A DNA stretch of 64,000 bases from Marsupella aquatica (GCA_973895155.1 OZ316896.1:62001-126000); one strand, 5' to 3'. Numbered from the stretch's first letter, positions 2,168 to 63,407 are shown. The notes: generated by a model from the sequence alone, not told the origin. Translations and numbers: made by a program.

Positions 2168-2274
2168 TGTAGATAGGCAGTAATTCCAAAGTCATGAAGA
2201 AAACCGGAAAATTTTTAAATTTTTGAAGTAGTTAAACTATATTTGCTGATAACTCGAGTAAACTAAACTCTGCC

Positions 2275-7224: not shown

Positions 7225-8686
7225 TGTGGTGCGTCCCATGGCTCCCTAAACCCAAGAAACCCCCCAGCTCAAGCCGATTCCCGCAGGTTTCGTGCTTGGC
7301 GAGGCCGTTTCCGCGGCTTAGCGGCATGGGACGCTGCTAACCTTCTACTACTACTATTAACATTTTACACACATATACTGGACAGATCCTTCATCGGGTC
7401 ATGAGATACGTAGCCGGCCTAATATAGGCCTTCCCCTGTCTTCCCCTGTCTTCCCCTCCGTCTTGTTAGGTATGTTTGGATTCCGCCGCCGGAATGATCC
7501 CCAATAGGCTTGGTTAAGCCGCTAAGACCTCTCTCAGCTCGACACATCCAACTCTCACTCCCCTGCTTACTTTCCTTCCTTCTGTTGATGTGGGCACTCT
7601 TCACACAAGTTAATGCGACACACAAATAGCAAAATGACTCATTCTGACTGAGTCATACCATGCACTTGCCATACAAACAGTACATCTCATACACAAGTTC
7701 TGCGAACTAAGCCGTGAGGCCAACTCTATTCAGCTCTTAGGCATGAGGAAACATGAATATACACAAGGGTCACTGTATGACTAACCGAGAGCTTCTCGTA
7801 CTACTTGATCCCAGCCCGGCTGGTGCAAACTAAAAACTTGCTAAAGAAGAGGCCCTGAGCTCCCCGCTGCCCAGGTACTTATCCTGGTAGTGGATCCGCC
7901 ATTCTTTGCATCGTAAGCCTAATCTACTTCACAGTAATCTACTTGCCCGAATCTACCTATGTACAGCAAGGCAGGAGCACAAGTGTTGCTCCTACCAGTG
8001 GGACCGCAATCCCACTAAGCTAAGTGTCAGGGCCGCTCCTGGTTCTGATCCTAATCCTAAACGTGGAGATCCGTGCCCGCCCTGCCCACTCACGCCTCCT
8101 CCCTCCACGTCCGCCCTCCCTAAAAGGAACGGCGCCCTTGCACCGTCACGACACCGGTGGTGGATCCTCAATGGACGCCCCCAACACTTCCTCCTCAGCC
8201 ACTGCCGTTGGCCCGCCTACTGACAGATTACCTGCCCTTGACCGAGTCAACTCTCCATCGGCCTGACTGGGTCCACCTTCGGCTTCAGCCTCGACAACTC
8301 CCACGGCTTCGGCTTCAGCCACCCCCACGGCTTCGGCTTCAGCCAACCCCACGGCTTCGGCCTCAGCCAACCCCACGGCTTCGGCCTCCCGTAGTCGTCT
8401 GCCTAGTTCGTGCTCGCAAATGAGCCACCATCTCCTGCAAGCGCTCCTTACCCCTCTCCTCTGCTGGTCCTTCTTCCCGTTGATCCTTCCTAGCCGCCGA
8501 CGCTTAACGCGCCCTAACCCTAATCGGGTTTTCACCCTTAGCCTTACCTCCGGCCTCTGCCCGGGTTCCATGGTTGCCCCTAATTGTTTATATTTTCCTT
8601 GTTTTGTCACTATACTAAGGTGTTCCTAGGGTGCCTTCCTGCTTTACCCACTTAACCGGCCGAGTGATTCCTGTCTAGGCATCACA
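7225..8686 (-). mobile_element. Family B short 5' LTR (1462 bp, ORF-deleted)
   Basis: TGTGATG...CACCACA on the minus strand, followed by PBS and gag; same length as and nearly identical to 48072-49533. Confidence 0.95.
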
Positions 8687-42324: not shown

Positions 42325-43589
42325 AGAATTTAGGGAAGTTGTAACCATGACCGATCCAGTAATGGATTATAGCAATTGTGTAAGAGTTCATAAGGAGAGA
42401 TAGTCAATTCAAGAGCACTCCACATTACAATACATAGAAACCCTAAATCATCACTTTAGAAATATATAACATATTAAATACAAGAAATAAACAGAGCATG
42501 AATGACATCCACATGAAACAAAGCATGATATAAGGAGGTCCTACATAAAACATTCATAAGAATTCAACATAATCACAATATTGCTGAAAGATGATGATCA
42601 ATTCAATTACAATGGAACAGTTTACAATGTCGTCAACGTAATTCAGAGAAAACAGGAACTTGTAAACTGAAAATTGTTTGAAATAATTGAAAGCAAATGC
42701 ATGTTACTATCAATTATCAAGCATGATAATGCATTGCTTCTTGAATTCTAAAATCTACAAAACATGACAGTGGTGGACCTTGCCACCCAGCACCCTCACC
42801 AATCCCAGCACTCACGCCTCCACAGAATACCTCGAGCAAGCATCCTAGGGCCCCTTGCACCACCAGCGGCCCCTCCCATACAAAGCCGCACTTGCTCTCC
42901 TACACGACCGCTACTCAACGGTCCTCACTGTCTGCACAAGCAAACAAGCACCTCAGTAAGTAACCCTTCAAGATCTAGAACTCGCCAAGTCTAGCATCCT
43001 AACTCAAGCTCAACAGAAATTGGTAAATAGGTCAGCGATAGGTCCTCCTGATGCCATAAGCGAGAACCAGAACCCACACCCACTGTTCATCCAGAACAGC
43101 TCCTTCCTTGGGCGTAGCCAGGGTTCCCCCTCGTACCTATCCATCACCAACTGACAGCCCTGACCCCAGCACATGCTCATGGCCCAAATAGTGTACCTTG
43201 TCCTAAAGCTTGTCCTAAAAGCTTGTCTAGCTGTGACGCCGCCGGTACGGCGGTTAATGAGTGATTCAGTCTAACTGCGCTCGGCACGCGCGTTAGGTGG
43301 GTCTTAGGCCGCTATTATTAGCATAACGACAGTATTTAGGTAATCATTAGGGGTAGGACATCATTAGGCAATAAGGGGGACTTCAGGTTCGGGCTGGCGG
43401 CGGGTCGCTATTCGCACACCCGGGTTATGAGCATGGAGGGGCCCCTCCCTCGGGTCCGTATAACGAACTTAAGGAAGCGGCCACTGACGCACGCTGACTC
43501 AGACCGGCGGAGTGGCCGGTACACCACAAGCGTGAGCGGTTCAACCTATGGGCGTCGAGGAGACGTCGGGGATCGACAAGCCCTCAAAG

Positions 43590-43597
43590 TATAAAAG
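43590..43597 (+). promoter_or_regulatory. Candidate TATA box (TATAAAAG) of LTR C
   Basis: About 108 nt upstream of the ORF ATG, followed by a pyrimidine-rich leader. Confidence 0.55.
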
Positions 43598-43697
43598 GGG
43601 AGCCAACCCTTTGTAGTGCACCAGTCCATCAGTCCGCGCGCCAGCTTCGACCCCAGCTCTCTCGTTCTCTCTAGGTCGCCACTACTATCTCCTCTGA

Positions 43698-46328
43698 ATG
43701 TCGCACACGATCCTCTCCAGCTCGGCCATTCGATTCTGGACGCAGTTCCTATCTACCGGAAGGCACTTGGCCGATTCATTGAAACACGCCAACCCGCGCC
43801 GATATGAGATCGAACGCGAATACGAGAGAGCCATCCGCCTAGCAGGACGACACCACTACGTCCTTAACTTTGACTACCCGTCTCAGAGCGAGCTTTACCG
43901 ACCAGCTGAGGTATCTGGGTACTTCTTTGACGGAGACAAATATATCGGGTTCTGGGAAGCATTGCTTCGGCTTCCGGACGAGGTCTTCAATATCCCGGGT
44001 ACAATCGACCTGCAGCGACATCACTTCGACCACATCCCTGCCCAGGTTCGGGCAATCATTAACGGCGAGTCCAGTACCAACCGTTCGACAAGGGCGTCCG
44101 CACTCGCTTCGGAGAACTTCTACCAGCACCTACAGAGCTTCATGGGAACTCGGCCATCAACCAACATGACCAACTCAGCCGGACCCGTACCCGTGCCCAT
44201 GCAACCTCAGCTTCAGCTTCAGCCTCAGCCGCAGCCTAGCCAAACCCCACCACCTATCACCCAGCCAGCACAGGTACGCTCCATCATCAACGCTGTGGAT
44301 CTTAGCGATGACGACGAGGCTACCCCACCCTTGACCAGGCGGCCCAGAGGAACAAACGCTCGGGGGCCCGACACTATACCGTCCCCACCCCCTGCTCTGA
44401 CCCCAGGAGCGGCCCCAGCAGACAACATGGTGACCGTGGCCGCCCCGGGCCCGTTACCAACCGCAGTGGCACTCCCCAGGCCCGATCGGGAGGATGGGGA
44501 AGTATCACCTTCCCCGAGTCAGTCACGGGGAAAGAAGAGAAAGGAATCCGCCAGTGCATCCGGGTTACCGTTAGCCACGGTAGCCGTAGCCAAGGTAACG
44601 ATGCATCGCATGGGGGAAAACGTTCACAGCAACATCCTCCATCCCAAGCATGCGGTGTACCTAAAGACTCAGGGATTTGAGCACCTCGCCTCTCTCCCCT
44701 GGAACACTTGCAGGTACTACGGGGAGGACATGACAGAATTCGTCAAGAATTATGACGACGTACGTCAACAGACTCGGCTGCGGGGAAGGAATATGTCCCT
44801 CACAAAAGAACGGCTCAAGATGATCTTCGGGTTACCCGAAGGTGACCATCGAGTCGAATCACGGGCTCCCGGGGGCAAGGGGGCCAAGTACCAATCTTCA
44901 AGTTTTCCCTCAGAGGGATCAGTAGACAACGGGTTCGTGATGAGGACCTGCCTCATGCCCGAGATAGCTGAGCGGCTGGAGTTCCAGAGGTACGCTCTCC
45001 ACTTGATGGAACCCCGGGGGGAGATCTCCGCCGCCTAGGTCATCCAGGTCGAGAACTATCGACCTAGGAAGTGGGCGTCGTACTTCGCTAAGAAATTCCA
45101 TGAAGAGATGGAGCGGCGAAGGAAGACGCTGTACATTGGCGGGAAGGCGTATTTCGCTAGCCACATCGAAATCATTCTTGAGTGGTATGCCCGGTTTGAT
45201 CGACGAACCCTTCCCCGCATCAACGTTACAAAGCTGGTCCCAGCTAGGTGGGTTTTTCCGGCATTGGAGAGACGACCCCAACCCGAGGCCCGAAGTCCAG
45301 TGGACACGCCAGCTTCACCCACCCCACCTCCACAAATAGCTGTAATCGTAACCGAGGAGGCGCCGGAGGGGTCGGTCGTCGCAACCGTTGATGCGACCCA
45401 ACTAGCCGGGCTAAGTACAGAAGTTGGTACGGCAGAGGTCTTACCCGAACCCGGGTCTCCCAAGGACCCGCCGGTGGCAATTCCGGAGAACCGGACATCG
45501 CTGCAGGAGGATACTCCGGCCCCTTCCAACGTTATGTCCCCAGGGCTGGACGTCACTGCCCCGGCCCCTGCGCGTGTTGATGTCTGCCCGTGCCCAAATC
45601 CGGACAGGCACAACTTGGACCACCCGGAACTCTTCGTACAGGGTACGTTTCTGAACGGGCTTCTGGGAGATTTCTCTCATCAAATTGCCCGGGATACCGG
45701 GGAGTTCATGGCTCGGAAGGTAGCCTGTTTCTTCAATCAGGAGTTGGTTGCCGCCGTAAAGGCAGGGCGGGCCCAGTCGGAGGCCCTTCAGAGGATAGAG
45801 CGGTACCGGGTGGAGTCCGTGTACCTAAAGAACGAAGTGGCGGCTCAAGAGGCTGAGCTTATGCAACTACGACCCAAGGTTGCAGCCGCCGATGAGTTGT
45901 TAGCAAAGGCGTACGCTCTTACCGCCCTAGCCGAACAGGCCAAAGCTGGGAACGAGGCCGAGATTACACGACTCCGGAACCAGATTGACAGTTTGAAGAA
46001 ACAAGCTGTCACCTGGCAGAAAGACCTGGAGGAGGCCGAGGAGCGAGCCCAGCGGGACGCGACGGAGATAGCCACACTGCAGGCCGAGATGGCGCGGCTC
46101 CAAACTGAGGCCGAGAAGCAGGACCAGCTGGCGAGTAAACTGGCGAGCGACGCCCAGCAGCTGGAGGAGGCATGTCAGGAGGCAGCAGAGGAGACGGACG
46201 CGGCGAGGCGAGAGAACGAATCTCTGCTAGACCAGGTCCAGCTCCTCAAAGCGGACAATGATAGGCTTCGAAGACAGCGGGATGGCCGTTCCCATTCGGG
46301 CGGCTCTGGCAAGCGTGCCAGGCATTAG
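43698..46328 (+). pseudogene. LTR-embedded ORF (about 876 codons, one TAG at 45036-45038): PMD-like domain and C-terminal coiled coil
   Basis: ORFs 43698-45038 and 45108-46328 are in the same frame; GEISAA*V aligns to AEIGKAQV of the family B ORF. Confidence 0.85.
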
Positions 46329-47859
46329 CGGCGGAGTAGGAATAGATTAGGATTAGGATTGGCTTAGTCAGGCTCTTGGGACAGGCACCTGTCTTAGGTA
46401 CGGCAGCGCTGCCCTGCTGTCCAGCCTGCGTAGATTAGGATCTTCTAATAAGACACAGCCGTTTTCCGGCCTGACTGTCAGCTTAGTTAGGACCTTGGTC
46501 AGCGAATCTTCGGCGGGAGGACGCCCCGTTCCTCGGCTCTTAGTATTTAGTGCACCCCTCGGTAGAGGGAGGGGGGGGTTTTTAGTTTCAGAGTCGGCCA
46601 TCCGCGGGACATGCGGGGAGTCCCGACCTCTGGGAATGACAGAGTACCAAGGGGAGGGGGTAGGACTAAGCTTGTCGGGCGAGTGCGGAGCCGGACTCCG
46701 TTGTAGTGTGCACCCTTGGCCTTGAACCTGTGCATTCCAGGGCTGTCGTGTCAACTAAGTGTACGCATATGTTCCCTTTGTAGTAAAAATCCTTTCCCAT
46801 CATTTTTCCTTCGTGTAAATCGAGATTGTATGCATGTGTGCGCATATGTGTGTGGGTTTCTCGTATATGGGTGGCAGCGCCGGGCCGAACGCACTACCCG
46901 AGACGTGCACAGGGTGCAGCCTGCGGGTAAGTGGTTGCGAGCACGGGTTGAGGACCTGTATCATCGAATCCGGATCGAAGGCGGACAGCACGAAGGCTTA
47001 GAAGCCCTTAAGCCGGGGTCGATCCTGCTATCGACTAAGGTACGTTCCGGCGGCGGAACACAAACCATACCTAGGAGGTGTCCGTATTTAGCAGTATGCG
47101 CACTTAGCGCTAGTTTACGAGAATAAGGTGCATTACGTGCTTCCCTTCCTGCCCGAACCCTCAGATTTACGAGGGATGTGCCCGTCTAAGCTGAAGTCTG
47201 AGTTAAGGCTGAAGCCTACGACGTGACACTAGCAACCAACTCCCGATTCGCCTCACTAATGGCCTAGGGACCGAGTACTCTTGGAACTCAACCTCCACAC
47301 CTACTTGGCCTTGCCTCCCCAACACAAGCTCCCTTGGGAGACTGAACACGGCTTGGCTGCTGTTCGGCAGGATTTGGTAAGCGGGCGAGTTAACACCAGC
47401 AAACCCCAAGAACCCATGGTGCCCCCAGACCCAGCTGAGCTCAGGAGGGCTACAGCTTTCCAACGCACCAAAGAAGTACTCCAAGAAGTTGTCATTTTGT
47501 GGTCGAGGCATTTGGTCTGCATACAATCAAGATACTCAAGGCCCTAACCCTTCAATAACAAATTTTTTAATCAGAACGGAAAAAGATGTTCAATTCCTCT
47601 TTTTTTCTAAAATTCTCAAGCATTTTTTAAACACAAATCGAGATGTTTGTTTCAGTCAGCATAGAAGGAATAGGTTGTGTGTACTTCTTACTTAGGTACG
47701 TTAGGCGCGATATTAATTAGGAACTTATTACGTTATGGACCCAAAAATGCCTCCAATAGTTTTTCTTCACAAGGTACTGTGCAGATCATTTGTATCGTGC
47801 CCAGATTTATATTGTGGTTTGACACACCTAGTAGCGCGCCGTGATGAGAATTATGCGGG

Positions 47860-48071: not shown

Positions 48072-49533
48072 TGTGGTGCGTCCCATGGCTCCCTAAACCC
48101 AAGAAACCCCCCAGCTCAAGCCGATTCCCGCAGGTTTCGTGCTTGGCGAGGCCGTTTCCGCGGCTTAGCGGCATGGGACGCTGCTAACCTTCTACTACTA
48201 CTATTAACATTTTACACACATATACTGGACAGATCCTTCATCGGGTCATGAGATACGTAGCCGGCCTAATATAGGCCTTCCCCTGTCTTCCCCTGTCTTC
48301 CCCTCCGTCTTGTTAGGTATGTTTGGATTCCGCCGCCGGAATGATCCCCAATAGGCTTGGTTAAGCCGCTAAGACCTCTCTCAGCTCGACACATCCAACT
48401 CTCACTCCCCTGCTTACTTTCCTTCCTTCTGTTGATGTGGGCACTCTTCACACAAGTTAATGCGACACACAAATAGCAAAATGACTCATTCTGACTGAGT
48501 CATACCATGCACTTGCCATACAAACAGTACATCTCATACACAAGTTCTGCGAACTAAGCCGTGAGGCCAACTCTATTCAGCTCTTAGGCATGAGGAAACA
48601 TGAATATACACAAGGGTCACTGTATGACTAACCGAGAGCTTCTCGTACTACTTGATCCCAGCCCGGCTGGTGCAAACTAAAAACTTGCTAAAGAAGAGGC
48701 CCTGAGCTCCCCGCTGCCCAGGTACTTATCCTGGTAGTGGATCCGCCATTCTTTGCATCGTAAGCCTAATCTACTTCACAGTAATCTACTTGCCCGAATC
48801 TACCTATGTACAGCAAGGCAGGAGCACAAGTGTTGCTCCTACCAGTGGGACCGCAATCCCACTAAGCTAAGTGTCAGGGCCGCTCCTGGTTCTGATCCTA
48901 ATCCTAAACGTGGAGATCCGTGCCCGCCCTGCCCACTCACGCCTCCTCCCTCCACGTCCGCCCTCCCTAAAAGGAACGGCGCCCTTGCACCGTCACGACA
49001 CCGGTGGTGGATCCTCAATGGACGCCCCCAACACTTCCTCCTCAGCCACTGCCGTTGGCCCGCCTACTGACAGATTACCTGCCCTTGACCGAGTCAACTC
49101 TCCATCGGCCTGACTGGGTCCACCTTCGGCTTCAGCCTCGACAACTCCCACGGCTTCGGCTTCAGCCACCCCCACGGCTTCGGCTTCAGCCAACCCCACG
49201 GCTTCGGCCTCAGCCAACCCCACGGCTTCGGCCTCCCGTAGTCGTCTGCCTAGTTCGTGCTCGCAAATGAGCCACCATCTCCTGCAAGCGCTCCTTACCC
49301 CTCTCCTCTGCCGGTCCTTCTTCCCGTTGATCCTTCCTAGCCGCCGACGCTTAACGCGCCCTAACCCTAATCGGGTTTTCACCCTCAGCCTTACCTCCGG
49401 CCTCTGCCCGGGTTCCATGGTTGCCCCTAATTGTTTATATTTTCCTTGTTTTGTCCCTATACTAAGGTGTTCCTAGGGTGCCTTCCTGCTTTACCCACTT
49501 AACCGGCCGAGTGATTCCTGTCTAGGCATCACA
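48072..49533 (-). mobile_element. Family B short 3' LTR (1462 bp)
   Basis: Preceded on the minus strand by PPT AAGTGGGGAG-CTA (49534-49546); near-identical to 7225-8686. Confidence 0.95.
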
Positions 49534-52500
49534 TAGCTCCCCACTTAATTGTGAAGCGTCCTCGCGAACAACTTCATCTTCGTCCATATAGTATTTCTTG
49601 AGGCGGTCATAATGGATGCGAACTGGATATACCTCTCCCGTAATGTTGGCCAATTGTACGGAGCCATTGGGGAACATCATGGTTACTCTAAAGGGTCCTA
49701 ACCAGCGAGTGTAAAGCTTTCCTGGAAACCTACTATACCTACTGTCATAAAGTAGCACAAGATCACCGGTATGAATACTAACTACTTTTAACCTTTTATC
49801 ATACTGCTGCTTCATGATATTCTGTCTATATTCTACTCTCTCGGCTGAAATCATTCTCGCTTCCTCTAAAGCTTCTAACCTATATTCTCGCTCCTTTAGG
49901 CTCTCCTCCGCTGAGGCTCTTTCCTCAATTGTAACTTGAAATGTCGGTATCTCAAGTTGCATGGGTACCAGGGCTTCTTGTCCAAAGGTTAAGAAGAAGG
50001 GTGTATGACCGGTAGTGGATTTATAGGCAAGATTGTAAGCAAAAACAGCAGCAAACAATTTATCATCCCAATCGAGTTTGTTCTGAGCTACTGTCTTGTT
50101 CAATATCTTTCCTATGATTCCGTTTGCTCGTTCTGTCAACCCGTTTGCCTTTGGATGGTAGGGAGTAGTAGGCCTATGTTTAACTAAATACTGCTCATTT
50201 AAACGACTAATTATATCATTCAAAAAATGGGTTCCTCTATCACTAACTAATTCTAGGGGTGCTCCATACCTGGTGAAGATCTGCTCATACATGAATCTAG
50301 CCGTAGTAATTGCATCATCCTTCGTTGTTGGTCTGGCCTCTACCCATTTAGTTGCATAATCCGTAGCCAGGATTATGTACTTGTTCCGTCGAGGGTGGGT
50401 CAGTGGTTTCAGAGGTCCAATGTAATCAATACCCCACTTCTCGAATGGTGCCAGAGGTAGAATAGGGTGCAGTGGATGCCTGGTGGACGCCCTTGGTCCT
50501 CCCGCTCGTTGACAAGGATCGCATTGTTTGATAAACTGATAGACATCTTTGTGCAAGGTGGGCCACCAGTAACCGGCATTTAATATCTTCTTAGACGTGG
50601 TTACTGGGGCAAAATGTCCTCCGGCCTCCTCTCCATGCATGGCCCGTAGGACTCGTTTTACCTCTCTCTTTTCCAAACATCTTTGAATCGTGCCGTTGAT
50701 TCCATGCTTGTGCAGTATGCCTTTAATGCACTGATACTGTCTAACCTTCCGCACAAAGACTGCGGCTTGCTCTCGGCTTAACCCTGGCTGTAATCTGGAA
50801 GTGCTGAGAAATTGTAAAATCTCAGGGTACCATGTACCAGCTATTTCCACAACGAATAGCTCCTCGTCGGGGAATCGATCATCGATGCAATCCGTGGCAG
50901 GTTTACCTGTGATCCTTGAAAAGAAGTCGGCATTGGCATGTAACTTTCCCGGCTTGATCCTCAGCTCATAGTCAAACTCCTGTAATAGCAAAATCCATCT
51001 TGCTACTCTGCCTGTAAGGTCCGGCTTATTGACTAGGTACTTCAAACTTTCATGATTAGTATGAAAGATTACCTTGTACCCTAGTAAATAATGCCTAAAC
51101 TTTTTACAAGAATAAATGACTCCTAATGCTTCTCTTTCCGTGGTAGAGTAGTTCCGTTCGGCATCGGCAAGCTGACGGCTTGCGAAGTATATGGGATGGT
51201 CCCTTCCTTTCTCATCCAACTGACTTAGTACTGAGCCAATACAGAAGCCCGAGACATCTACAAAAACATGAAAATCTTTGTTCCAGTCCGGTGCTATCAT
51301 GACTGGGGCCTCTACTAACATCTGCTTCAATTCTACCACCGCTGTGACTCGTTCGGGTGTGGGTTCGAAGTCTGCTCCTGCCTTGAGCATATTGGTTAAT
51401 GGTAAAGCCAGCTTGGCAAAATCCTTGATGAACCGGCGATAGTAACCAATGCATCTTAGGTTGCATGATATCTAGCCATACTGCTAGCTTACCTTTGTCA
51501 ATCTCAATGCCCTTCCTTGATACCTTGTGACCTAGTAGCACCCCCTCGGTTACTGCAAAAAAACATTTATCTGGGTGTAACTTGAGACCCACCTCTCTAC
51601 ATCTCATGAAGGTTTTCCTGAGGTATTTAGCATGTTTCGATGCCTTCCCGAATACTGCAAAGTCATCAATGAAGATTTCCATGAACTTTCTCAAGTAATC
51701 ATGAAAAATGTTCACCATTAATCGTTGGAACATAGCTGGTGCGTTGCAGAGTCCAAACGGCATACGATTGAAGACATAGATCCCCCATTCCGTGATGAAG
51801 GCCGTCTTGATTTGGTCTTCCTGCCGAATCCTGATTTGGTTATAACCAGAGTATCCATCCATGAATGAATATAGTTCATGACTGGCTACCATGTATAGTA
51901 CCATATCAGTAAACGGTAAAGGAAAATGGTCTTTTAATGTTGCTTCATTCAGCTTCCTGTAATCCTGACAAACCCGGATCTTGGGTTTACCATCGGGTCC
52001 AGCTTTCTTGGGAACTATCACAATTGGAGACACCCAGTTTGAATGCAGGACTGGAGTGATGAATCCAGCTTCAACTAGTTTGTCGATTTCTGTTTTGACC
52101 AGCAGGGAATACTTCGGGTTCATCCTTCGAATTGGTTGTCAAAATGATTTGGCTCCTAACATGAGATCAATTCGATGTTCCCCTAGTGTTGGATCTACTC
52201 CCTTTAGATCTTGGTGACTCCATGCAAACACATCCTGAAATTCAATCAATAAGTCACTGATCTCTTTCTCGAGCTCAGGTGCTAGGTTTCTCCCTAAGTT
52301 CAGTTCTCTTCCCTCTCCTAAGTCGAGCTTCCGATATTGCCGTGCTTGGATCATATTAATTTGCTTCTTCAAATTCGGGTCCAGTTCGGCTTCCAGTCTC
52401 TCTAATCTCATACCTCCATAAACTGGGATCTCGGCTGGACTAGCCGAGTCGGTCCCTTCCTTGGTGTCCATAGATTGTCCCCTTACCGGTCTATTCGGTT

Positions 52501-54629
52501 TTGAATTAGTGGTCGGCTCCCCTTCCTGCCTTGGCTCTGGATCGTGTCTGTCCATCTCATCCACTTCTTGCTCCTGAGAGTTAGGCCGCTGTGCTCTCTC
52601 GGCTTCTAATAGGGCCTCAATTTGTTCTGCCCTCGTAATCGGCTTGTATGCCGATCCCTTGGTATTTAATTCCTTGCCGATGATCGATGGCGTTGTGGAC
52701 CCCGTCGGCTCTGCCACAACGCCTGCAGAAAATCCACTGTCCCTGCTACTGCTCCCCACTTAGCCGTTTCATCCAATTGGTCTACATCCTTTACTTCCTC
52801 CGGAATTGCAGCTAAAAAGGTGGATTCTATTGTAAAGCAGTCCTCGACCTCTTCGTCTTCTTCTTCCAAGTCACCTTCCATTGGTTCTTGCCATAATCCG
52901 CTGGGGGTACCTCTGGTCCAAAGACACCTTCTTCGGTTAGGTTAGTGAGGCATTCTAACCAACGTACTTCATCGGCTGACTCCAGTCCACTGTCGTACCC
53001 ATCTACTTCCCTTATGCTTTTCCTACGGTCATCCTTAGTGTCCCAGGATACCGTGATAGAGGGGGTCCCGAAAGTGAACTGCTTTTTACCCCAATCTTCT
53101 ATTACCTCGGCTAGGTACAGCCATGGCCTACCAATCAATAGCCGGAATGACGTAGGATTTACCGGCTTCATTACTACATAGTTAATGCTAAAGAAGATAC
53201 CTCCTATCTCTGTCTTGATGCCGGTTAACACTCCCGTCGGAATGACCTGATATCCATTGGCCATGTTCAACACTCTTCCAGTCATCTCCGGTGTTAGACC
53301 CCACCCTTTTGCTGTTGAATCAATCATAATACATACCCCTGATCCTCCATCGATGGGTACCCGTAGTAATAATTCTCCTTGAATCATTAATGGTAATGCT
53401 GGGGCTCCTTGATCTTCTTCTATCATTAGTACGTCGGATCTGGTTGCTACCTTGGGTAATCTCGGCTTGCCGAGAATAGCCTTCCTTAATTGCTTCCGGA
53501 AGTACGGGCTATTTTTCAATAGTTGACCTACTGTTGCCGAGACTCTAGATTCTAGTACATCTTTAGCCAGGTCATAGGGAACAATCGGCTTCTCTTCTGG
53601 TGGTGTTTCCGTCTTGGATTTGGCCAGTTTTGCCACGCTAGTCTCCACAGCTGTTGGGTCTTCCGAAGCAAACAATGCTTTTGCTCGTTTTACATCCTTG
53701 GTAATGGCTTCGGTATTCTCCAGGGTTTCTAATTCTCTTAGTTGTTCCTTAACACTAGCCGTAACAGAGGGGTAGAACAACTTAGGATGATCTCGATTGA
53801 AGTCGCTATCTTGTGAAGGATTGGTTTCACTGGTGGGCTCATGGCTTACCTGTATTGCCGGAGCCCTCCCTTCTCCTTCTGTTGATGTTGACGAAGAGTC
53901 GATCCTTTCCTCCGTAACCTTCCCTTTATTTTTGGCCAGCCCATCCCACCTTTCCTTCCTTCTGGTAGATCGAGTAGAGACCCGGTAGCAATCATGATCT
54001 AAATCCTCCTCTGAGAAGGTTGATAGGGCTTCGGCCTCATCATCAGATGGTACAAACTCTGCCTCGGCATCCTCTTGCCATCCTAGTTCGATGTGGTTGA
54101 TTTGAACTCCTCCGGGGGTAGTACCTGGCGGTAAGATCTTGATCGGCAAAAGCTTATGATTTGCGGCCAGGCCTGCCAACCAAGTAGGACATTGCCCTAG
54201 CATATGACCTTCCTGTCGGCATCCCATACATAGCTGAGCTGGTTGTCCATCACCCTGTTTGCGTGCATTCGGGCATTCTCTAGCAAAATGGCCAGGTTGA
54301 CCACAATTATAGCACGCCGCAAATCTTTGCACATTCGGCCTAGGAGGTACTGACGGGTTCTGAATAATCCGAGGATACATCTCTCCTGGATTGTTCCTTA
54401 ACCCTGACCACAGAGATGCAGGTCTGTTGGATAGGTCTCGTGCTCCAGTCTCACTGATGCCGAAAACACTATCAGCGGCATCTCCCAAAAAGTACTCTAC
54501 TTCTCCCTGACATGGTCTGACCTCGGCCACATGCCAAACATGATTAGTATTAAGCTTAGGACACGCATCTTTATGGTGTCCGGTTTTATAACATAAGGCA
54601 CACCATACAGAGCTATCCTCCTGTACTAC
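49522..54629 (-). pseudogene. gag-pol: Family B gag (C-terminal part), protease, RT, RNase H, integrase; several frameshifts and stops
   Basis: Three CCHC knuckles; IDGGS protease; RT CQDYRKLN...FGLCNAP...FIDD; RNase H FVDVS; integrase WGIDY, VSDRG, NGLTER; TGA at 52139; frameshifts near 52870, 52750 and 51455; pol stop lies inside the LTR. Confidence 0.95.
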
Positions 54630-57600
54630 TGTGATGCCTAGACAGGAATCACTCGGCCGGTTAAGTGGGTAAAGCAGGAAGGCACCCTAGGAACACCTTA
54701 GTATAGTGACAAAACAAGGAAAATATAAACAATTAGGGGCAACCATGGAACCCGGGTAGAGGCCGAAGGTAAGGCTGAGGGTGAAAACCCGATTAGGGTT
54801 AGGGCGTGTTAAGCGTCGGCGGCTAGGAAGGATCAACGGGAAGAAGGACGGGCAGAGGAGAGGGGTAAGGAGCGCTTGCAGGAGATGGTGGCTCATTTGC
54901 GAGCACGAACTAGGCAGACGACTACGGGAGGCCAACTACTGTCAGCTGCTTAGGCAAGCACTCGGGGAGAGAGTAGATACCGACGATCAACCTAAGGAGG
55001 GTATGAGCAACGTCAATCAAGCGGCACATTTCTGGGGATGCCTGTTCGAACGGGCAACTGAGTACATCAAGACTTACGAGGACGAGGAGTCAGAAAGGGC
55101 AGCTCGAGAACGGCAGGAGCTCGCTCGATTGTGGGAGCTGCAGAAGACGGCTTTCTTAGGAGGCGAACTCATCAAGGACGAGTTCCTGTGGACGCCTACT
55201 TCCAATCAACTCGACGATCTTCTGTTTTGCAAAGACAGCGTCGTCGGCATCCGAGAGGCCATCAAGAACTGCAACGACATACACTGGGAATTAAAGGGTA
55301 GCACGGAAAGGTGGACCCAGGCAACGGTGCTAGGAGAAACCTCCACGGCAGCAGAGATGAAGAGGAAGGGGGCCGTCAACGATGAAGCCACCCCGGCAAA
55401 AAGAACGAGGTCGGCGGCACCAAAGAGGCCAGCCGAGCAGCAGAGCAGGAGGCAGGGAGAAGCCGAAAAGGAGGAGGTCGATCCCATCAAGGCCATTCCA
55501 ACCAGGGATGACACCTGGAAGGGCTGGGCGGCAACCCTACCAGTGGAGGTGCAACTACATTTTGCACGGGAGGAGGATGCATGCTTTACGGCCATGCAGA
55601 CCAAGAAGTACCAAGGCTTCATGGCCGGATCCGGCTTGGAGGCCTTTGTAAGATTACCATGGCTGAAGCCGGAGGTACCAGAGTCAGACCTATTAGAATT
55701 CGTGGGGTCATGGGAACCCGAGACCAATTGCACGAGGATATATGGGAAGGATTTCTATCTTACTCCCAAGGTAATTGCCGAAGTGTTTGGCTTGCCGATA
55801 GGCAATAAGACCAAAGTTGATACCAGGAAGACCCTGCCTGACAAGGAGTTCCGGTCGTTCCCCGGGCCATCAACGAAGAATGGCTTCTTCCGGAACACCT
55901 GCACCAACCCGCACATAGGAGAGATGATCGACTTCTTGCGGGTGACCATGCATTGTAACTTGCCGAGGGCAGAGATCGGCAAGGCACAGGTCTATCTGGC
56001 AGAAAGGCCAGACCCAAGCCGGGACTACAACGGGTACCTCCTCAACAAATTGAAGAAGATCTTAAAGGAGGAGCAGCAGGTAATCGGCATGGGGAGCGTG
56101 TCGCGGCTTGGCTATCACATGCCGCTGTTGTGCCGGTATGCCAGAGGTCAGACTTTTGCCCCGGTACTTCCCCTGCAGGTAAGGGCACCCGAGGAAGCTC
56201 CAACACCAAGGCCGTTGGCTGAGAAGCCTCAACCACCTGTTAGTCCTACGATCGAGCAGGTGTTTAGGCCCAGGAAGGAAGACTTGCCGATGCAGCAACC
56301 AGGCATGCAGAGTCTGCTGAAACTACTGGAGAAAGAAAAGAAATCGGCATCGGCAACAACAACAACAACGGCAACGGCAACAATGCAGGACACTACTACA
56401 GAGGTAGGCCTACACCGGCTCACAAGAGAAAACCCCTTTGCTGGAGACAAGGAGAGAATCAGGCCGGAATCCAAGCCAGGTGTTCGAATGTACGTGGGAA
56501 CCTCAAGCTCCGAATCTGAGGCAGAATTGCCTGAAGCTCCTACCGAGGAAGAGGAGAGGGAGAAGCCGGACGTCCAAGAGGTAGAGGAGGCAGTGGAGGA
56601 CTACAGCCATGATAATTCCGGCTATGGGTCGGACCATCACGTTCCAGGAGTAAGGACCTGTGGCCGGTTTGTCCCCACACTTCCAAGGGTAGTGCGAGGG
56701 GACCCCAACCAGCAGAGTAGCCCTGAGTCTCCCCCACCAGATGTTGCTCCCCCGAGCTTCGACGGCATAAAACAGACGGTGCAGGAATTTCAGGAGCGAA
56801 TCAAGCAGGAGGAAGAGGCCGCCCTGGCTAAGGAAAAGGATTTACCAGGAGGAGATTGGCCGGAGGACATCAGGCGGCTAGCCGAAAAAGGAAGCAAACC
56901 TCTAGCCACGATTGAAGAGATCCGCAGGACGGCTTGGGAGCAGAGGCCACGATGGGCGATGCCGATCACTTCTACTTACTCCACCTACGCTAAGAATGGA
57001 GCCATGGAGTATGGTGAGATGTGTGGGGAACTTGCGCTCGGCATCTTTGGAGAGGAGTTGGAGATAGGACCCTTTTTCCATAGGGAGCAGTTGGAGAAGC
57101 ACCAATTAGAAGAAGCGGTGGCTTTAGAGAGAAGCAAGAAGGACGAGGTCATTCGGCGGCTTAGGAGGATGGGAGCCGAGATTGAAGATCTAAGGGCGGC
57201 CAAGAAAGCCCAAGATGAACTGCGGATTAAACGACATGAGCTGAACATCATGCAGGGGCAGTTGGACGCCGCGCAGGCTGATAATCAGAATATCAAGGAT
57301 AAACTGACTCAGACGCAGGAAGAGTTGGCCGACACGATCAAAGAGAGGGAAAAGTGGAAGCAAGAGCTGAAGAATACAGAGGAGGCCCACATAACAGCCA
57401 ACAGCCGGGCCATGGCGGAGACCCAAAGAAAGGAATGGGCGTTGAAAGGGGAGCTCGAGAAAATCCGCGGAGCCCTTGAGCAGAAGGAGGTCGAGTTAGG
57501 GAAATCCTATCAAGGGATTATGGCGCTGCAGCAGGAGCTTGCGTCCCTGACGGCCAGCTTCAAGGCCGACCTAAGGGAGAAGGATGAGATGCTCGAACAG

Positions 57601-59324
57601 ACTTACGCCAAGATGAACCAGATGGAGTCTGTCATCATTGCAGAGCTCGACAAGGAGCTAAGAGCAACCCAGGAGGAGAGGGCTACCTTGAAGAAGGAAT
57701 TGGAGGAAGCCCACAGGGAGCAGGAGGAGGCCAAAAACGAGCTGGAGGGGGCACGTAAGGACCTGGATGAAACCCAAGAGGAGTTGGAGGAAATCACGAG
57801 GAAGATGGAGAACCTACAGCGGCGGGCCGACAACCAAACAGAGCGGCTGAAGAAACAAGCCGCAGTATTTAAATGCTTAGCTGCAGCAGGTCCATCTCCC
57901 GTTGGGACAAACCAGTTACCAGGGGTGGTAATTGCCGAAGGACAAGCCGCGTCAACTGCACCAGTGCCGGAAGTAAGTGGGAAGGGGAAGGGACCAGCTG
58001 CCGAGCCACCAACGAAGAAGAAGCGGAAACCTCCAGGGTCAAGGAGTAATACGACTTCACAGGCCGTGGTGATCAAGGAGGTAGACCCAGCACCGACCCC
58101 AGACAGGGTCACGGCTAAGGATCCAACTACCCTAGGGGAAGGGGAGGCCGAAGCCGAGGGAGTGGCTGAAGCCGAAGCCGTGGGAGTGGCTGAGGCCGAA
58201 GCCGTGGGAGTGGCTGAGGCCGAAGCCGTGGGAGTGGCTGAGGCCGAAGCCGTGGGTATTGCCGAGGCCGGTGTCGAGGCTGAAGCCGAAGGTGGACCCA
58301 GTCAGGCCGATGGAGAGTTGACTCGGTCAAGGGCAGGTAATCTGTCAGTAGGCGGGCCAACGGCAGTGGCTGAGGAGGAAGTGTTGGGGGCGTCCATTGA
58401 GGATCCACCACCGGTGTCGTGACGGTGCAAGGGCGCCGTTCCTTTTAGGGAGGGCGGACATGGAGGGAGGAGGCGTGAGTGGGCAGGGCGGGCGCGGATC
58501 TCCACGTTTAGGATTAGGATCAGAACCAGGAGCGGCCCTGACACTTAGCTTAGTGGGATTGCGGTCCCACTGGTAGGAGCAACACTTGTGCTCCTGCCTT
58601 GCTGTACATAGGTAGATTCGGGCAAGTAGATTACTGTCAGGTAGATTAGGCTTACGATGCAAAGAATGGCGGATCCACTACCAGGATAAGTACCTAGGCA
58701 GCGGGGAGCTCAGGGCCTCTTCTTTAGCAAGTTTTTAGTTTGCACCAGCCGGGCTGGGATCAAGTAGTACGAGAAGCTCTCGGTTAGTCATACAGTGACC
58801 CTTGTGTATATTCATGTTTCCTCATGCCTAAGAGCTGAATAGAGTTGGCCTCACGGCTTAGTTCGCAGAACTTGTGTATGAGATGTACTGTTTGTATGGC
58901 AAGTGCATGGTATGACTCAGTCAGAATGAGTCATTTTGCTATTTGTGTGTCGCATTAACTTGTGTGAAGAGTGCCCACATCAACAGAAGGAAGGAAAGTA
59001 AGCAGGGGAGTGAGAGTTGGATGTGTCGAGCTGAGAGAGGTCTTAGCGGCTTAACCAAGCCTATTGGGGATCATTCCGGCGGCGGAATCCAAACATACCT
59101 AACAGGAAGACAGGGGAAGGCCTATATTAGGCCGGCTACGTATCTCATGACCCGATGAAGGATCTGTCCAGTATATGTGTGTAAAATGTTAATAGTAGTA
59201 GTAGAAGGTTAGCAGCGTCCCATGCCGCTAAGCCGCGGAAACGGCCTCGCCAAGCACGAAACCTGCGGGAATCGGCTTGAGCTGGGGGGTTTCTTGGGTT
59301 TAGGGAGCCATGGGACGCACCACA
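54630..59324 (+). mobile_element. Family B full-length LTR (4695 bp), solo, inverted inside another family B copy
   Basis: TGTGATG...CACCACA, the same ends as the PBS- and PPT-defined short LTRs; flanks ACTAC and CTTCT do not match. Confidence 0.93.
55003..58422 (+). CDS. LTR-embedded ORF (1139 aa from ATG 55003; frame open from 54781): PMD-like domain, acidic/Pro region, long coiled coil, NLS-like KKKRK, EAVGVAEA repeats
   Basis: Intact frame; LLEFVGSWEPETNCTRIYGKDFYLTPKVIAEVFGLPIG resembles the PMD W..ET...T..DV...LGLP.G motif; MS...A.FW start resembles the ORF C start. Confidence 0.85.
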   Translation: MSNVNQAAHFWGCLFERATEYIKTYEDEESERAARERQELARLWELQKTAFLGGELIKDEFLWTPTSNQLDDLLFCKDSVVGIREAIKNCNDIHWELKGSTERWTQATVLGETSTAAEMKRKGAVNDEATPAKRTRSAAPKRPAEQQSRRQGEAEKEEVDPIKAIPTRDDTWKGWAATLPVEVQLHFAREEDACFTAMQTKKYQGFMAGSGLEAFVRLPWLKPEVPESDLLEFVGSWEPETNCTRIYGKDFYLTPKVIAEVFGLPIGNKTKVDTRKTLPDKEFRSFPGPSTKNGFFRNTCTNPHIGEMIDFLRVTMHCNLPRAEIGKAQVYLAERPDPSRDYNGYLLNKLKKILKEEQQVIGMGSVSRLGYHMPLLCRYARGQTFAPVLPLQVRAPEEAPTPRPLAEKPQPPVSPTIEQVFRPRKEDLPMQQPGMQSLLKLLEKEKKSASATTTTTATATMQDTTTEVGLHRLTRENPFAGDKERIRPESKPGVRMYVGTSSSESEAELPEAPTEEEEREKPDVQEVEEAVEDYSHDNSGYGSDHHVPGVRTCGRFVPTLPRVVRGDPNQQSSPESPPPDVAPPSFDGIKQTVQEFQERIKQEEEAALAKEKDLPGGDWPEDIRRLAEKGSKPLATIEEIRRTAWEQRPRWAMPITSTYSTYAKNGAMEYGEMCGELALGIFGEELEIGPFFHREQLEKHQLEEAVALERSKKDEVIRRLRRMGAEIEDLRAAKKAQDELRIKRHELNIMQGQLDAAQADNQNIKDKLTQTQEELADTIKEREKWKQELKNTEEAHITANSRAMAETQRKEWALKGELEKIRGALEQKEVELGKSYQGIMALQQELASLTASFKADLREKDEMLEQTYAKMNQMESVIIAELDKELRATQEERATLKKELEEAHREQEEAKNELEGARKDLDETQEELEEITRKMENLQRRADNQTERLKKQAAVFKCLAAAGPSPVGTNQLPGVVIAEGQAASTAPVPEVSGKGKGPAAEPPTKKKRKPPGSRSNTTSQAVVIKEVDPAPTPDRVTAKDPTTLGEGEAEAEGVAEAEAVGVAEAEAVGVAEAEAVGVAEAEAVGIAEAGVEAEAEGGPSQADGELTRSRAGNLSVGGPTAVAEEEVLGASIEDPPPVS

Positions 59325-60921
59325 CTTCTCAGCCAACGGCCTCGGTGTTGGAGCTTCCTCGGGTGCCCTTACCTACAGGGGAAGTACCGGGGCAAAAGTC
59401 TGACCTCTGGCATACCGGCACAACAGCGGCATGTGATAGCCAAGCCGCGACACGCTCCCCATGCCGATTACCTGCTGCTCCTCCTTTAAGATCTTCTTCA
59501 ATTTGTTGAGGAGGTACCCGTTGTAGTCCCGGCTTGGGTCTGGCCTTTCTGCCAGATAGACCTGTGCCTTGCCGATCTCTGCCCTCGGCAAGTTACAATG
59601 CATGGTCACCCGCAAGAAGTCGATCATCTCTCCTATGTGCGGGTTGGTGCAGGTGTTCCGGAAGAAGCCATTCTTCGTTGATGGCCCGGGGAACGACCGG
59701 AACTCCTTGTCAGGCAGGGTCTTCCTGGTATCAACTTTGGTCTTATTGCCTATCGGCAAGCCAAACACTTCGGCAATTACCTTGGGAGTAAGATAGAAAT
59801 CCTTCCCATATATCCTCGTGCAATTGGTCTCGGGTTCCCATGACCCCACGAATTCTAATAGGTCTGACTCTGGTACCTCCGGCTTCAGCCATGGTAATCT
59901 TACAAAGGCCTCCAAGCCGGATCCGGCCATGAAGCCTTGGTACTTCTTGGTCTGCATGGCCGTAAAGCATGCATCCTCCTCCCGTGCAAAATGTAGTTGC
60001 ACCTCCACCGGTAGGGTTGCCGCCCAGCCCTTCCAGGTGTCATCCCTGGTTGGAATGGCCTTGATGGGATCGACCTCCTCCTTTTCGGCTTCTCCCTGCC
60101 TCCTGCTCTGCTGCTCGGCTGGCCTCTTTGGTGCCGCCGACCTCGTTCTTTTTGCCGGGGTGGCTTCATCGTTGACGGCCCCCTTCCTCTTCATCTCTGC
60201 TGCCGTGGAGGTTTCTCCTAGCACCGTTGCCTGGGTCCACCTTTCCGTGCTACCCTTTAATTCCCAGTGTATGTCGTTGCAGTTCTTGATGGCCTCTCGG
60301 ATGCCGACGACGCTGTCTTTGCAAAACAGAAGATTGTCGAGTTGATTGGAAGTAGGCGTCCACAGGAACTCGTCCTTGATGAGTTCGCCTCCTAAGAAAG
60401 CCGTCTTCTGCAGCTCCCACAATCGAGCAAGCTCCTGCCGTTCTCGAGCTGCCCTTTCTGACTCCTCGTCCTCGTAAGTCTTGATGTACTCAGTTGCCCG
60501 TTCGAACAGGCATCCCCAGAAATGTGCCGCTTGATTGACGTTGCTCATACCCTCCTTAGGTCGATCGTCGGTATCTATTCTCTCCCCGAGTGCTTGCCTA
60601 AGCAGCTGACAATAGTTGGCCTCCCGTAGTCGTCTGCCTAGTTCGTGCTCGCAAATGAGCCACCATCTCTTGCAAGCGCTCCTTACCCCTCTCCTCTGCC
60701 GGTCCTTCTTCCCGTTGATCCTTCCTAGCCGCCGACGCTTAACGCGCCCTAACCCTAATCGGGTTTTCACCCTCAGCCTTACCTCCGGCCTCTGCCCGGG
60801 TTCCATGGTTGCCCCTAATTGTTTATATTTTCCTTGTTTTGTCCCTATACTAAGGTGTTCCTAGGGTGCCTTCCTGCTTTACCCACTTAACCGGCCGAGT
60901 GATTCCTGTCTAGGCATCACA
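59325..60921 (-). mobile_element. First 1.6 kb of a family B long LTR, truncated
   Basis: Reverse complement of 54630 to about 56224; TGTGATG start at 60921. Confidence 0.93.
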
Positions 60922-61801
60922 GTGACACTTTTGATGCTAACGGAGTCCAATGGTTTCAACATGAATGTTATAGCTGCAAAAGACTTTTATTGGAAATGTT
61001 ATGGGAGTGCGGGACTACAAGTGAGTCACAATGAATGCTAGTGGTGTATGAACACTTAAAAAATAATGTTATGGGAGCCTACGGCAACCACCCGTAAGTC
61101 ACCCTAATCAATACTAGCGGAGTTTAAAGGTTTTAATACTAATGTTGTGGGAGTCCAAATGTTGAAACGTCGAGACCGTGCATTGCATGTAGGAAACCAT
61201 GCACCGCGCTCCCTAAATACCCTGAAATGGCCTGAAGACCGGCCTCATTGCACGCGCTATGCAGAGAAGATATATACAGGCCTGAAGACCGGCCTCATTG
61301 CACGCGCTGTGCAGAGAAGATATATACAGGGAATTTGAAAGTGACGAGCACGTTAAGGAACCAGGTTGAAGGCTGGTACAAGAATTCTAGAAGCATTGAC
61401 CAAGCTTTGTTTCCTTTGTATTTCTCACGAACCTAATTGAATGGTGACACTTTTGATGCTAACAGAGTCCAATGGTTTCAACATGAATGTTATAGCTGCA
61501 AAAGACTTTTATTGGAAATGTTATGGGAGTGCGGGACTACAAGTGAGTCACAATGAATGCTAGTGGTGTATGAACACTTAAAAAATAATGTTATGGGAGC
61601 GTACGGCAACCACCTGTAAGTCACCCTAATCAATACTAGCGGAGTTTAAAGGTTTTAATACTAATGTTGTGGGAGTCCAAATGTTGAAACGTCGAGACCG
61701 TGCACCGCATGTAGGAGACCATGCACCGCGCTCCCTAAATACCCTGAAATGGCCTGAAGACCGGCCTCATTGCACGCGCTGTGCAGAGAAGATATATACA
61801 G
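60922..61801 (+). repeat. Tandem repeat, 522-bp period (about 1.7 units) with an internal 50-bp duplication
   Basis: GTGACACTTTTGATGCTAAC at 60922 and 61444. Confidence 0.9.
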
Positions 61802-63403
61802 TCTGTCATCATTGCAGAGCTTGACAAGGAGTTAAGAGTGACCCGGGAGGAGAGAGCTGCGTTTAAACAAGAATTGGAGGAAGCGCAAAAGGAGCTGGAG
61901 GAGGCGCGCAAGGACCTGGACGAAGTGCAGGAAGAGTTGGAGGAAAGCACGCGGAAGCTAGAGAACTTACAACAACAAGCCGACAACCAAACGGAGCGGC
62001 TGAAGAAACAAGCCGCAGTATTTAAGTGCTCGGCTTCATCAGGGCCAACTCAAATTGAGGCCACTAAGTTACCAGGAGTGGTACTGGCCGAAGGACAAGC
62101 CGCGCCATTTGCACTAGTGCCGGAAGTAAGTGGGAAGGGGAAGGGGCCAGCTGCCGAACCAGAAAAGAAGAAGAAGCGAAAACCTTCAAGGTCAAGGAGT
62201 AATACGGCTCCACAGGCCGTGGTGACCAAGGAGGTAAACCCAGCACCGACCTCAGGCAGGGTTACGACAGAGGATCCAACTACCTTGGAAGAAGGGGATG
62301 ACAAGGCTGAGGCCGTAGCCAAGGTTGATGTTGAAGCCGATGCCGTTGCCGAGGGTGGACCCAGTCAGGCCGATGGAGAGTTGACTTAGTCAAGGGCAGG
62401 TAATCTGTCAGAGAACGAACCTACGGCAGTGGCTAAGATGGAAGCGTTGGGGGCGTCCACTGAGGAACAGACACCGCTGCCATGACGGTGGTGGAGGGCC
62501 GCTCCACTCAAGGAGGGCGGACGTGGAGGGAGGAGGCGTGAGTGGGCAGGGCGGGCTCAGATCTCTAAGTTTAGGATTAGGATCAGGACCAGGAGGCGGC
62601 CCTGACACTTAGCTTAGTGGGATTGCGGTTCCACTGGTAAGAGCAACACTTGTACTCCTGCCTCGTTGTACATAGGTAGATTTAGTTAGGTAGATTCAGT
62701 GAGGTAGATTAAGCTTACGCTGCAAGGAATTAGGCGGATCCACTACCAAGATAAGTACCTGGGCAGCGGGGAGCTCAGGGCCTCTTCTTTAGCAAGTTTT
62801 TAGTTGCACCAGCCGGGCTGGGATCAAGTAGTAAGAGAAGCTCTCGGTTAGTCATATAGTGACCCTTGTGTATATTCATGTTTCCTCATGCCTAAGAGCT
62901 GAATAGAGTTGGCCTCACGGCTTAGTTCGCAGAGCTTGTGTATGAGATGTACTGTTTGTATGGCAAGTGCATGGTATGACTCAGTCAGAAGGAGTCATTT
63001 TGCTATTTGTGTGTCGCATTAACTTGTGTGAAGAGTGCCCACATCAACTAATAGAGGAAGGAAAGTAAGCAAGAGAGTGAGAGTTGGATGTGTCGAGCTG
63101 AGAGAGGTCTTAGCGGCTTAACCAAGCCTATTGGGGATCATTTCGGCGGCGGAATCCAAATATACCTAACAAGACGGAGGGGAAGACAAGGGAAGGCCTA
63201 GATTAGGCCGGCTACGTATCTCATGACCCGATGAAGGATCTGTCCAGTATATGTGTGTAAAATGTTAATAGTAGTAGTAGAAGGAGGTTAGCAGCGTCCC
63301 ATGCCACTAAGCCGCGGAAACGGTCTCCCCAAGCGTGAAACCCGCGGGAATTGGCTTGTGAAGGGGGGTTTCTGGGGTTTAGGGAGCCATGGGATGCACC
63401 ACA
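61802..63403 (+). mobile_element. 3' part of a diverged family B long 5' LTR, including the ORF C-terminus
   Basis: Homologous to about 57628-59324; ends CACCACA, then PBS. Confidence 0.92.
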
Positions 63404-63407
63404 TTTT

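Follow-up and report, generated by a model that had tools for sequence, protein, structure and literature searches.

A 4.7-kb unit within a stretch of 64,000 nucleotides of Marsupella aquatica DNA (GCA_973895155.1 OZ316896.1:62001-126000; hereafter the window) is very probably a complete long terminal repeat (LTR) of a non-chromovirus Ty3/Gypsy family, and the gene inside it, an open reading frame (ORF) of 1139 codons, belongs to the LTR. The unit, copy Y of what we call the Y family, spans 4695 bp (54630-59324, plus strand), starts with TGTGATGCC and ends with GCACCACA. Window self-comparison and a terminus check revealed that its two ends are also the ends of two 1462-bp repeats on the minus strand, X5 and X3. 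A primer-binding site (PBS; TGGCGCTAGATGG...) and gag lie directly behind X5 (8686 to 7225), and X3 (49533 to 48072) is preceded by a purine tract. A Y-type 3' end was also found at 63403, followed by a PBS and gag, and a Y-type 5' end at 60921. Copies of the family show the hallmarks of an LTR: TG...CA with a short inverted repeat, a PBS (at 7220 and 63408) and a polypurine tract (PPT, at 49534). The original prediction that Y is an LTR was confirmed by these termini, which are common to copies bounded by PBS and gag and to copies bounded by a PPT. Its claim that the pol stop codon falls inside the 3' LTR, with no 3' internal region, was also borne out, the stop lying 12 nt inside X3. Since the internal region extends from PBS and gag to pol, and pol terminates within the LTR, the Y family leaves no room for an internal ORF. 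A long-form 5' LTR had also been proposed at 61802-63425. This copy, W, does have the 3' end followed by PBS and gag, but it is truncated, starting at ORF codon 876, and its ORF tail carries a premature stop.

A Pfam scan of the pol frames of the Y family revealed reverse transcriptase, RNase H and integrase in the Gypsy order, and the four gag-pol frames gave no Pfam match to a chromodomain or to an extra, archaeal-type RNase H. Rfam (54000-64000) and ARAGORN gave no match. The PBS of the Y family is putatively of the tRNA-Asn type, and those of the relatives Z, L004, L006 and L009 described below would be of the Asp type.

Several features of the window weigh against the 4.7-kb unit being the LTR. 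Y lacks the target-site duplication (TSD) that a plain solo LTR would have, its flanks being ACTAC and CTTCT. For the Y family, the 64 kb hold neither a full element with two long LTRs nor a long-form LTR directly behind a PPT, and the only LTRs that have an end with an adjoining PPT, or are complete with a PBS, are short. Y lies in a nest of truncated elements; its left end cuts gag (flank ACTAC) and its right end cuts another long LTR, V (flank CTTCT). Both joints are exact, at the TG and at the CA, as integrase ends would give, so that Y would most simply be a recombinant of two insertions with loss of the intervening DNA. The gag pieces at 6212 and 54629 were considered as halves of one element and rejected, because public contigs continue the gag at 54629 with other sequence.

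The short LTRs might suggest that the true LTR is 1.46 kb long and that the 3.2-kb ORF segment is an independent insertion, or that the unit is an internal ORF between two half-LTRs, and in two relatives, L006 and L012, the ORF is indeed internal. The structure of the copies makes this very improbable. In the short LTR, the initial 304 bp of the long LTR are joined to the final 1.18 kb of the long LTR via an 8-bp microhomology, of which the long LTR has just two copies (positions 297 and 3513). The reading frame continues across the joint, and the last ~78 codons of the ORF, the acidic tail and the stop are retained. Had the ORF segment been inserted, the short form should be an empty site free of ORF sequence; the ORF tail is present in it, which indicates that the short LTR is a deletion product of the long LTR. 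X3 and X5 differ at three sites, one allele being common to Y, so that the deletion form itself was likely copied as a subfamily. The 3.2-kb segment has no termini or TSD of its own that we could find, the long form is present in three copies within the window (Y, V and W), and no PPT cassette was found inside Y, or inside the solo LTR S of a second family, at up to four mismatches.

Public contigs also bear on the length of the LTR. Among 16 listed runs, none of them an RNA run, 14 contained part of the unit and six at least half of its words, with 10 studies in all. Depth was compared in four runs from contigs on pol-gag and Y, as median summed depth, which is a rough check and not a copy number. 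Relative to gag-protease, the ORF segment, which is absent from the short LTR, had a depth of 5.1, 5.3, 2.5 and 3.1; relative to the shared LTR ends, the values were 1.19, 0.76, 0.70 and 1.13. These depths roughly fit a family in which most LTRs are of the long form. Of 169 contig joints, the 15 listed did not include that of the short form, a weak negative. An independent insertion of the 3.2-kb segment therefore failed on three counts, the microhomology joint, the lack of own termini or TSD, and a depth of 0.70-1.19 times that of the LTR ends.

The ORF (55003-58422) is intact in Y and lies wholly within the unit, as had been predicted; its 1139 stop-free codons have a chance of ~3e-21 at local GC. 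A 5' extension of 86 codons, beginning with an ATG at LTR position 116, is open in V, X3 and X5 and closed in Y. It showed two synonymous against six other changes and was not counted as coding. Selection was estimated from one pair, Y and W, over one fifth of the gene. The 226 codons compared gave a synonymous rate (dS) of 0.39, a nonsynonymous rate (dN) of 0.145 and a dN/dS of 0.37 (95% bootstrap interval 0.26-0.55). Purifying selection was strongest, within the part compared, in the coiled-coil codons (n = 79; dN/dS 0.14, 0.07-0.28), and the gag control gave 0.14. The two later ORF parts (last 130 codons compared) gave 0.75 and 0.81 with intervals that span 1, a point against selection on the gene. 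Y and V differ within the ORF by three synonymous changes, one missense change and one stop, too few to test. The comparison of Y with W indicates that the ORF is under purifying selection. With a dN/dS well below 1 and a segment that does not behave as an independent insertion, the interpretation that this lineage keeps an accessory gene in its LTR is supported. Three points described below had not been foreseen: a second LTR family in the window, relatives with the gene in the internal region, and a predicted VANC21-like fold.

Two further families in the window carry homologous ORFs. The solo LTR S contains an ORF of 876 codons (43698-46328) with one in-frame stop, the middle domain of which matches Y (BLASTP E 2e-17), and a TATAAAA at LTR position 359. 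It was inserted into a repeat that has an uninterrupted relative at 25020-25664. A further, unrelated Gypsy-like element was noted at 25020-28450 and 42814-47448 (LTR ~700 bp, TGGTATCA-type PBS at ~25739, gag, protease), and S sits in a relative of its LTR. In the third family, Z, the LTR end at 6211 was confirmed by a PBS behind it in other copies (contig continuations). Z (2168-6211) as a proven 4-kb 3' LTR was not upheld, as depth does not step at 2168 in both deep runs: the 5' part of the Z ORF has 2.2 and 1.15 times the depth of pol in the two deepest runs, a point against an LTR-borne gene here. Depth rises at ~4280, and other TGTAG sites lie behind the Z ORF, which may be either in the LTR or internal. 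Tandem arrays of 8 bp flank the Z ORF (2280-2430 and 5234-5298), and one contig joint (2422 to 5279) removes the ORF between them, much as in the short LTRs X3 and X5. The domain family has a fourth, more distant member at 29253-31473 (plus strand), with a 279-aa ORF and then broken frames up to a RING-like Cys/His stretch. No LTR ends or pol were found around it. Among database proteins it leads a cluster of its own with 25 members, so that it may be part of a different type of element.

A profile of the four window domains matched 208 proteins at E<=0.001 among 1.84 billion representatives. One of the 20 homologs looked up was named, from the liverwort Calypogeia fissa, and a profile search of longer proteins names one more; the named homologs are annotated as 'unnamed protein product'. 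The single-sequence protein search yielded 0 of 829 candidates and the profile search of longer proteins 2 of 7261. The closest named relatives of pol are in Calypogeia (55-64%) and Riccia (42-54%), with seed plants at ~34-43%, which points to a liverwort or some other non-seed plant as the likely host.

An integrase scan of metagenome contigs gave 78 loci, with the domain present in 11, always in sense and 3' of integrase. In related loci a conserved cassette precedes the functional PPT and the TG of the LTR. The domain lies behind this cassette, and the cassette directly after pol, in seven of the 11 (L002, L004, L005, L007, L009, L010 and L011). An LTR end is visible in two of these seven, L004 and L009, where the TG behind the post-pol PPT is an inverted repeat (9 and 7 nt, respectively) of the LTR end before the PBS on the same contig; the other five show no visible LTR end. 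No second cassette follows in L005, L007 and L010, whose contigs continue for 215-1103 bp beyond the ORF stop. The ORF is internal in L006 and L012, with the cassette 87 and 30 bp after it; L006 is a complete, circularly assembled element with an LTR of ~990 bp. The contigs of L003 and L021 end inside the ORF. These loci indicate that relatives have the gene in either of two positions, in the internal region or after the PPT.

An integrase tree of 42 rows covered 19 of the 78 loci (L020 and three short proteins were dropped; L024, L019, P0216 and P0229 are long branches). L006 and L012 fell in different clades. The simplest reading would be that the internal ORF is ancestral and moved once behind the PPT cassette by rearrangement; the branch with the behind-PPT group on one side had a support of 48/74 and was present in 78% of bootstrap trees, which weakens the case for a single move. 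The window elements grouped with liverwort proteins outside the seed-plant cluster (97/94). L008, L013 and L014 form a clade sister to L012 and have a long post-pol ORF (801 aa, with a coiled coil, in L014) that did not match the domain profile. A motif resembling the start of a PBS, with a purine tract, occurs in L006 (3742-3769), in L015 (3092) and in the window (2140-2167 and 58435), that is, behind pol in internal-ORF relatives and behind the ORF stop in Y; it is not kept in W. Equating the purine-tract-like motif behind the ORF stop of Y, X3 and X5 with the post-pol motif of L006 and L015 was rejected as a post hoc pattern, absent from W.

The protein of Y combines a globular domain with a long charged helical stretch and has a KKKRK motif at aa 1006-1010. 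AlphaFold modelled the domain (aa 167-396) from 124 sequences with a pLDDT (predicted local distance difference test) score of 88 and a predicted template modelling score (pTM) of 0.85. When this model was compared with 48,161 PDB representatives, the only chain with a Z-score of at least 2 was DNA-bound VANC21 (Z-score 8.0, root-mean-square deviation (rmsd) 4.4, 206 of 230 residues aligned, 8% identity). The model of the Z-family domain (pLDDT 94.5) also ranked VANC21 first (Z-score 7.4, rmsd 4.0, 198 of 223 aligned), the next match being at 4.2. Set against these matches, Foldseek ranked VANC21 first for Y without significance (E 0.71, TM 0.42) and gave E 0.75 and TM 0.48 for the Z-family domain, identity is 8-13%, Z-scores of 7-8 are within the common range, and the two models share much of their alignment. 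Together, the models suggest that the ORF domain is likely to have a VANC/PMD-type fold. Sequence homology to VANC was not detected: nothing in Pfam exceeded the cut-off for Y or for the 55 homologs scanned of 150 listed, and the scans gave no match to PF03078, PF10536 or PF04195. A PDB profile search matched coiled coils and acidic tails only, and a BFVD fold search gave nothing at E<=0.001, the best match being an unnamed 805-aa protein (E 0.03).

A membrane protein of the Env type, as proposed for Athila, would be in keeping with an ORF that in the relatives is in sense and 3' of pol, and with a putative PBS type and a 5-bp TSD as in Athila. No transmembrane stretch was found, the top 19-residue hydropathy being 1.11 in Y and <=1.53 in all seven proteins tested, and Pfam gave no ATHILA ORF-1 match, making an Env-like role extremely improbable.

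VANC proteins act on their own transposons, which lose methylation in a sequence-specific manner, and VANC targets are often in tandem repeats (PMC5735166). VANC is reported to share its fold with the host regulator MAIN, and VANC and an Athila domain have been modelled as coiled-coil oligomers (PMC13547354). That two models match VANC21 best suggests a DNA-binding, possibly anti-silencing protein. A chromatin or DNA-binding regulator is the probable nature of the Y product as modelled; true anti-silencing activity is possible but doubtful. An over-represented short motif was found in six of ten units tested (Z, L004, L005, L007, L009 and L010; reached in 0-1 of 60 shuffles), whereas Y, W, S and L006 had no such motif in the non-coding LTR (reached in 52-60 of 60), which is unfavourable to sequence-specific targeting in the Y family. 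CpG observed/expected ratios in the LTR (0.66-0.78), like those of pol and gag (0.62-0.64), do not favour anti-silencing either. CCGG-containing 7-mers, which are candidate binding sites, are strongly over-represented in the non-coding LTRs of L004, L005, L007, L009 and L010, with as many as 19 copies (reached in 0-1 of 60 shuffles).

The gene might instead be an LTR gene for particle assembly, nuclear import, RNA handling or integration targeting, its domain and coiled coil having no part in anti-silencing. We regard this as a serious possibility, though not the probable one. A shared fold alone shows no function, Y has no motif array, domain-less short-LTR copies still got copied, and the functions of extra ORFs in plant LTR retrotransposons are left as an open question in the part of the review consulted (PMC7264820). 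Against it stand the motif arrays in six of the ten units and the fact that the sole solved structure matched, over nearly the whole domain and twice, is a sequence-specific DNA-binding anti-silencing protein.

On balance, we consider it somewhat more probable than not that the Y family has a selected, LTR-borne accessory gene, likely in the unique 3' region (U3) of the LTR, whose VANC21-like and coiled-coil product acts in trans on the family's own chromatin. The gene would have reached its site behind the PPT cassette by rearrangement from an internal ancestral position. Both LTRs of a new retrotransposon copy are identical, so that the gene would be present twice in each insertion and once in each solo LTR, S being an example. 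Reverse transcription would copy the gene into both LTRs, and every solo LTR formed by LTR-LTR recombination would keep it. The ORF would have a promoter near the start of the LTR, and the genomic RNA would begin from another promoter close to the LTR end, within its final few hundred bases. The protein would bind the family's DNA, counter silencing in trans and keep the family transcribable, and ORF-less short-LTR copies would live on protein from other copies. The full version, in which a non-seed-plant Gypsy clade moved a VANC-like, sequence-specific anti-silencing gene into U3 and solo LTRs, formed when the host purges insertions, became self-contained genes that keep the family unsilenced, its ORF-less short-LTR derivatives included, is tentative and, taken whole, unlikely.

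As to the place of the ORF within the LTR, U3 is probable, the repeated region (R) unlikely and the unique 5' region (U5) hardly to be expected. In a motif scan, Y, S, L004, L005 and L009 showed TATA-like motifs upstream of the ORF; in L006 and L009 such motifs lay ~100-150 nt short of the LTR end. Near the 3' end of Y no clear TATA is present, and the only TATA of S is upstream of the ORF, which fits R equally and so tells against U3. If the ORF lay in a very long R, a single promoter at the start of the LTR and poly(A) addition behind the ORF would yield an RNA carrying the ORF twice, with gag-pol made by splicing or re-initiation. The best TATA boxes are upstream of the ORF (position 359 in S, 95 in Y), no clear second TATA occurs in Y or S, and TGTA- and T-rich stretches, typical of 3' ends, lie behind the ORF. 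Such an arrangement is nonetheless rather improbable: L006 and L009 have TATA-like motifs near the LTR end, a 4-kb R would require a very long strong-stop DNA, and an ancestral internal site 3' of pol most simply becomes U3.

The closest parallel to an accessory gene in an LTR is sag of mouse mammary tumour virus (MMTV), in which the sag/naf ORF lies in U3, with its own U3 promoter reported (PMC9412291). As in sag, the accessory ORF here lies wholly inside the LTR and would be present in both LTRs; in contrast, MMTV is a vertebrate retrovirus and its protein is unrelated, and here the ORF has 1139 codons in a 4.7-kb plant Gypsy LTR, with a U3 position that we infer. Like Athila/OTA elements, the elements here have a non-chromovirus pol, no extra RNase H and, in S, a 5-bp TSD (PMC6317226), and L006 and L012 have a sense extra ORF 3' of pol. 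The extra ORFs described in the part of PMC7264820 consulted are internal, whereas here gag-pol makes up the whole interior and the ORF follows the PPT. In REXdb, Athila has an extra ORF between pol and the 3' LTR in 47% and not as an obligatory feature; the Y family is without it, L006 and L012 have it. Tat/Ogre/Retand elements have the archaeal-type RNase H that the Pfam scans did not find in the Y family. Phygy and Selgy are likewise non-seed-plant non-chromoviruses whose polyprotein fills the internal region; the part of PMC6317226 consulted reports no extra ORF for them and describes TSDs of 4 bp (NCGN in Phygy) and primers of the Trp or Ala type. The TSD of S is 5 bp, and NCGN occurs in none of five family flanks. 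Retrosat2/RIRE3 and Diaspora also have LTRs of several kb, Retrosat2 has an extra ORF0 and the pol stop of Diaspora is near the PPT; ORF0 is upstream of gag-pol, and no LTR-borne gene is described there in the portions consulted (PMC3485330, PMC1142308).

VANC21 of VANDAL21 (PDB 9lnk/9lnj) resembles the Y domain in predicted fold over ~200 residues, and both are transposon-encoded, fast evolving and made up of a globular domain and a coiled coil (PMC5735166, PMC13547354). VANC proteins belong to eudicot Mu-like DNA transposons, in contrast to the Gypsy setting here, with its 8-13% identity and no target-motif array in the Y-family LTR. No description of a plant LTR-borne protein gene was found in the full-text literature searched, which held few subscription papers, excluded the REXdb element table and included parts of PMC12844716, PMC12885004 and PMC11728184; a term search of PMC3601003 gave no match. 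A Gypsy element with an accessory gene and, in MMTV, an LTR-borne gene are both known; the present case adds the size, the predicted fold and the two-state clade.

Plant LTRs are regarded as non-coding and solo LTRs as dead scars. In the Y family, 73% of the LTR is a selected gene. Gene-bearing LTRs of 4-4.7 kb are likely to be missed or mis-split by LTR finders, and LTR-borne genes likely inflate orphan-gene counts in liverwort annotations. The predicted VANC21-like fold would make the function of an extra ORF directly testable, and a clade with the gene inside and outside the LTR offers a way to study movement of the LTR boundary. If the fold is true, it would push the VANC/PMD fold back to non-seed-plant retrotransposons and would touch on the proposal that VANC arose from host proteins of the MAIN type (PMC13547354). 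If the anti-silencing function is also true, an LTR retrotransposon would have an anti-silencing system that turns solo-LTR formation to its own use.

Table 1. Coordinates of the Y-family LTR, its gene and related features in the window.
Feature	Position	Strand	Remarks
Long LTR, copy Y	54630..59324	+	TG...CA; terminal bases inverted 7/8; gag abuts left, LTR fragment right
Intact 1139-aa ORF	55003..58422	+	LTR positions 374-3793, 73% of LTR length
Conserved globular domain, aa 167-396	55501..56190	+	Predicted VANC21-like fold
Probable coiled coil, ~aa 700-955	57100..57867	+	From sequence; weak coiled-coil Pfam match under cut-off
24-bp tandem repeat, 4.7 copies	58144..58256	+	Encodes acidic Ala/Glu/Gly tail
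Left 8-bp microhomology of short-LTR deletion	54926..54933	+	Right copy at 58142-58149
TATA-like motif, candidate ORF promoter	54724..54730	+	280 bp upstream of ORF
V, first 1597 bp of another long LTR	59325..60921	-	99.1% like Y; ORF codons 1-408, one premature stop near end
W, 3' 1.6 kb of diverged long 5' LTR	61801..63403	+	ORF codons 876-end; then PBS (63408-63425) and gag
Short 5' LTR X5	7225..8686	-	3 differences from X3; then PBS (7220-7203) and gag
Short 3' LTR X3	48072..49533	-	1462 bp; deletion form with ORF tail; contains pol stop
PPT and conserved upstream cassette	49534..49569	-	Within last pol codons
3' gag, protease, reverse transcriptase, RNase H and integrase of Y family	49522..54629	-	Broken by stops and frameshifts
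S, second family, solo LTR, 3997 bp	43232..47228	+	TG...CA; perfect 5-bp TSD CTAGC
Z, third family	2168..6211	+	Post-pol purine tract to LTR end; intact homologous 798-aa ORF (2632-5028)

Three other features of the window were recorded. A cluster of long ORFs at 35877-40588 (minus strand) encodes an Ulp1 (C48) protease and has a weak DNA-methylase match, and is probably another mobile element. A 523-aa frame at 12664-14235 (plus strand) contains a FunK1-type (Pkinase_fungal) kinase domain. Between V and W, at 60922-61800, a unit of ~520 bp is repeated in tandem (1.7 copies); it includes an inner repeat of 51 bp and ends in CA.

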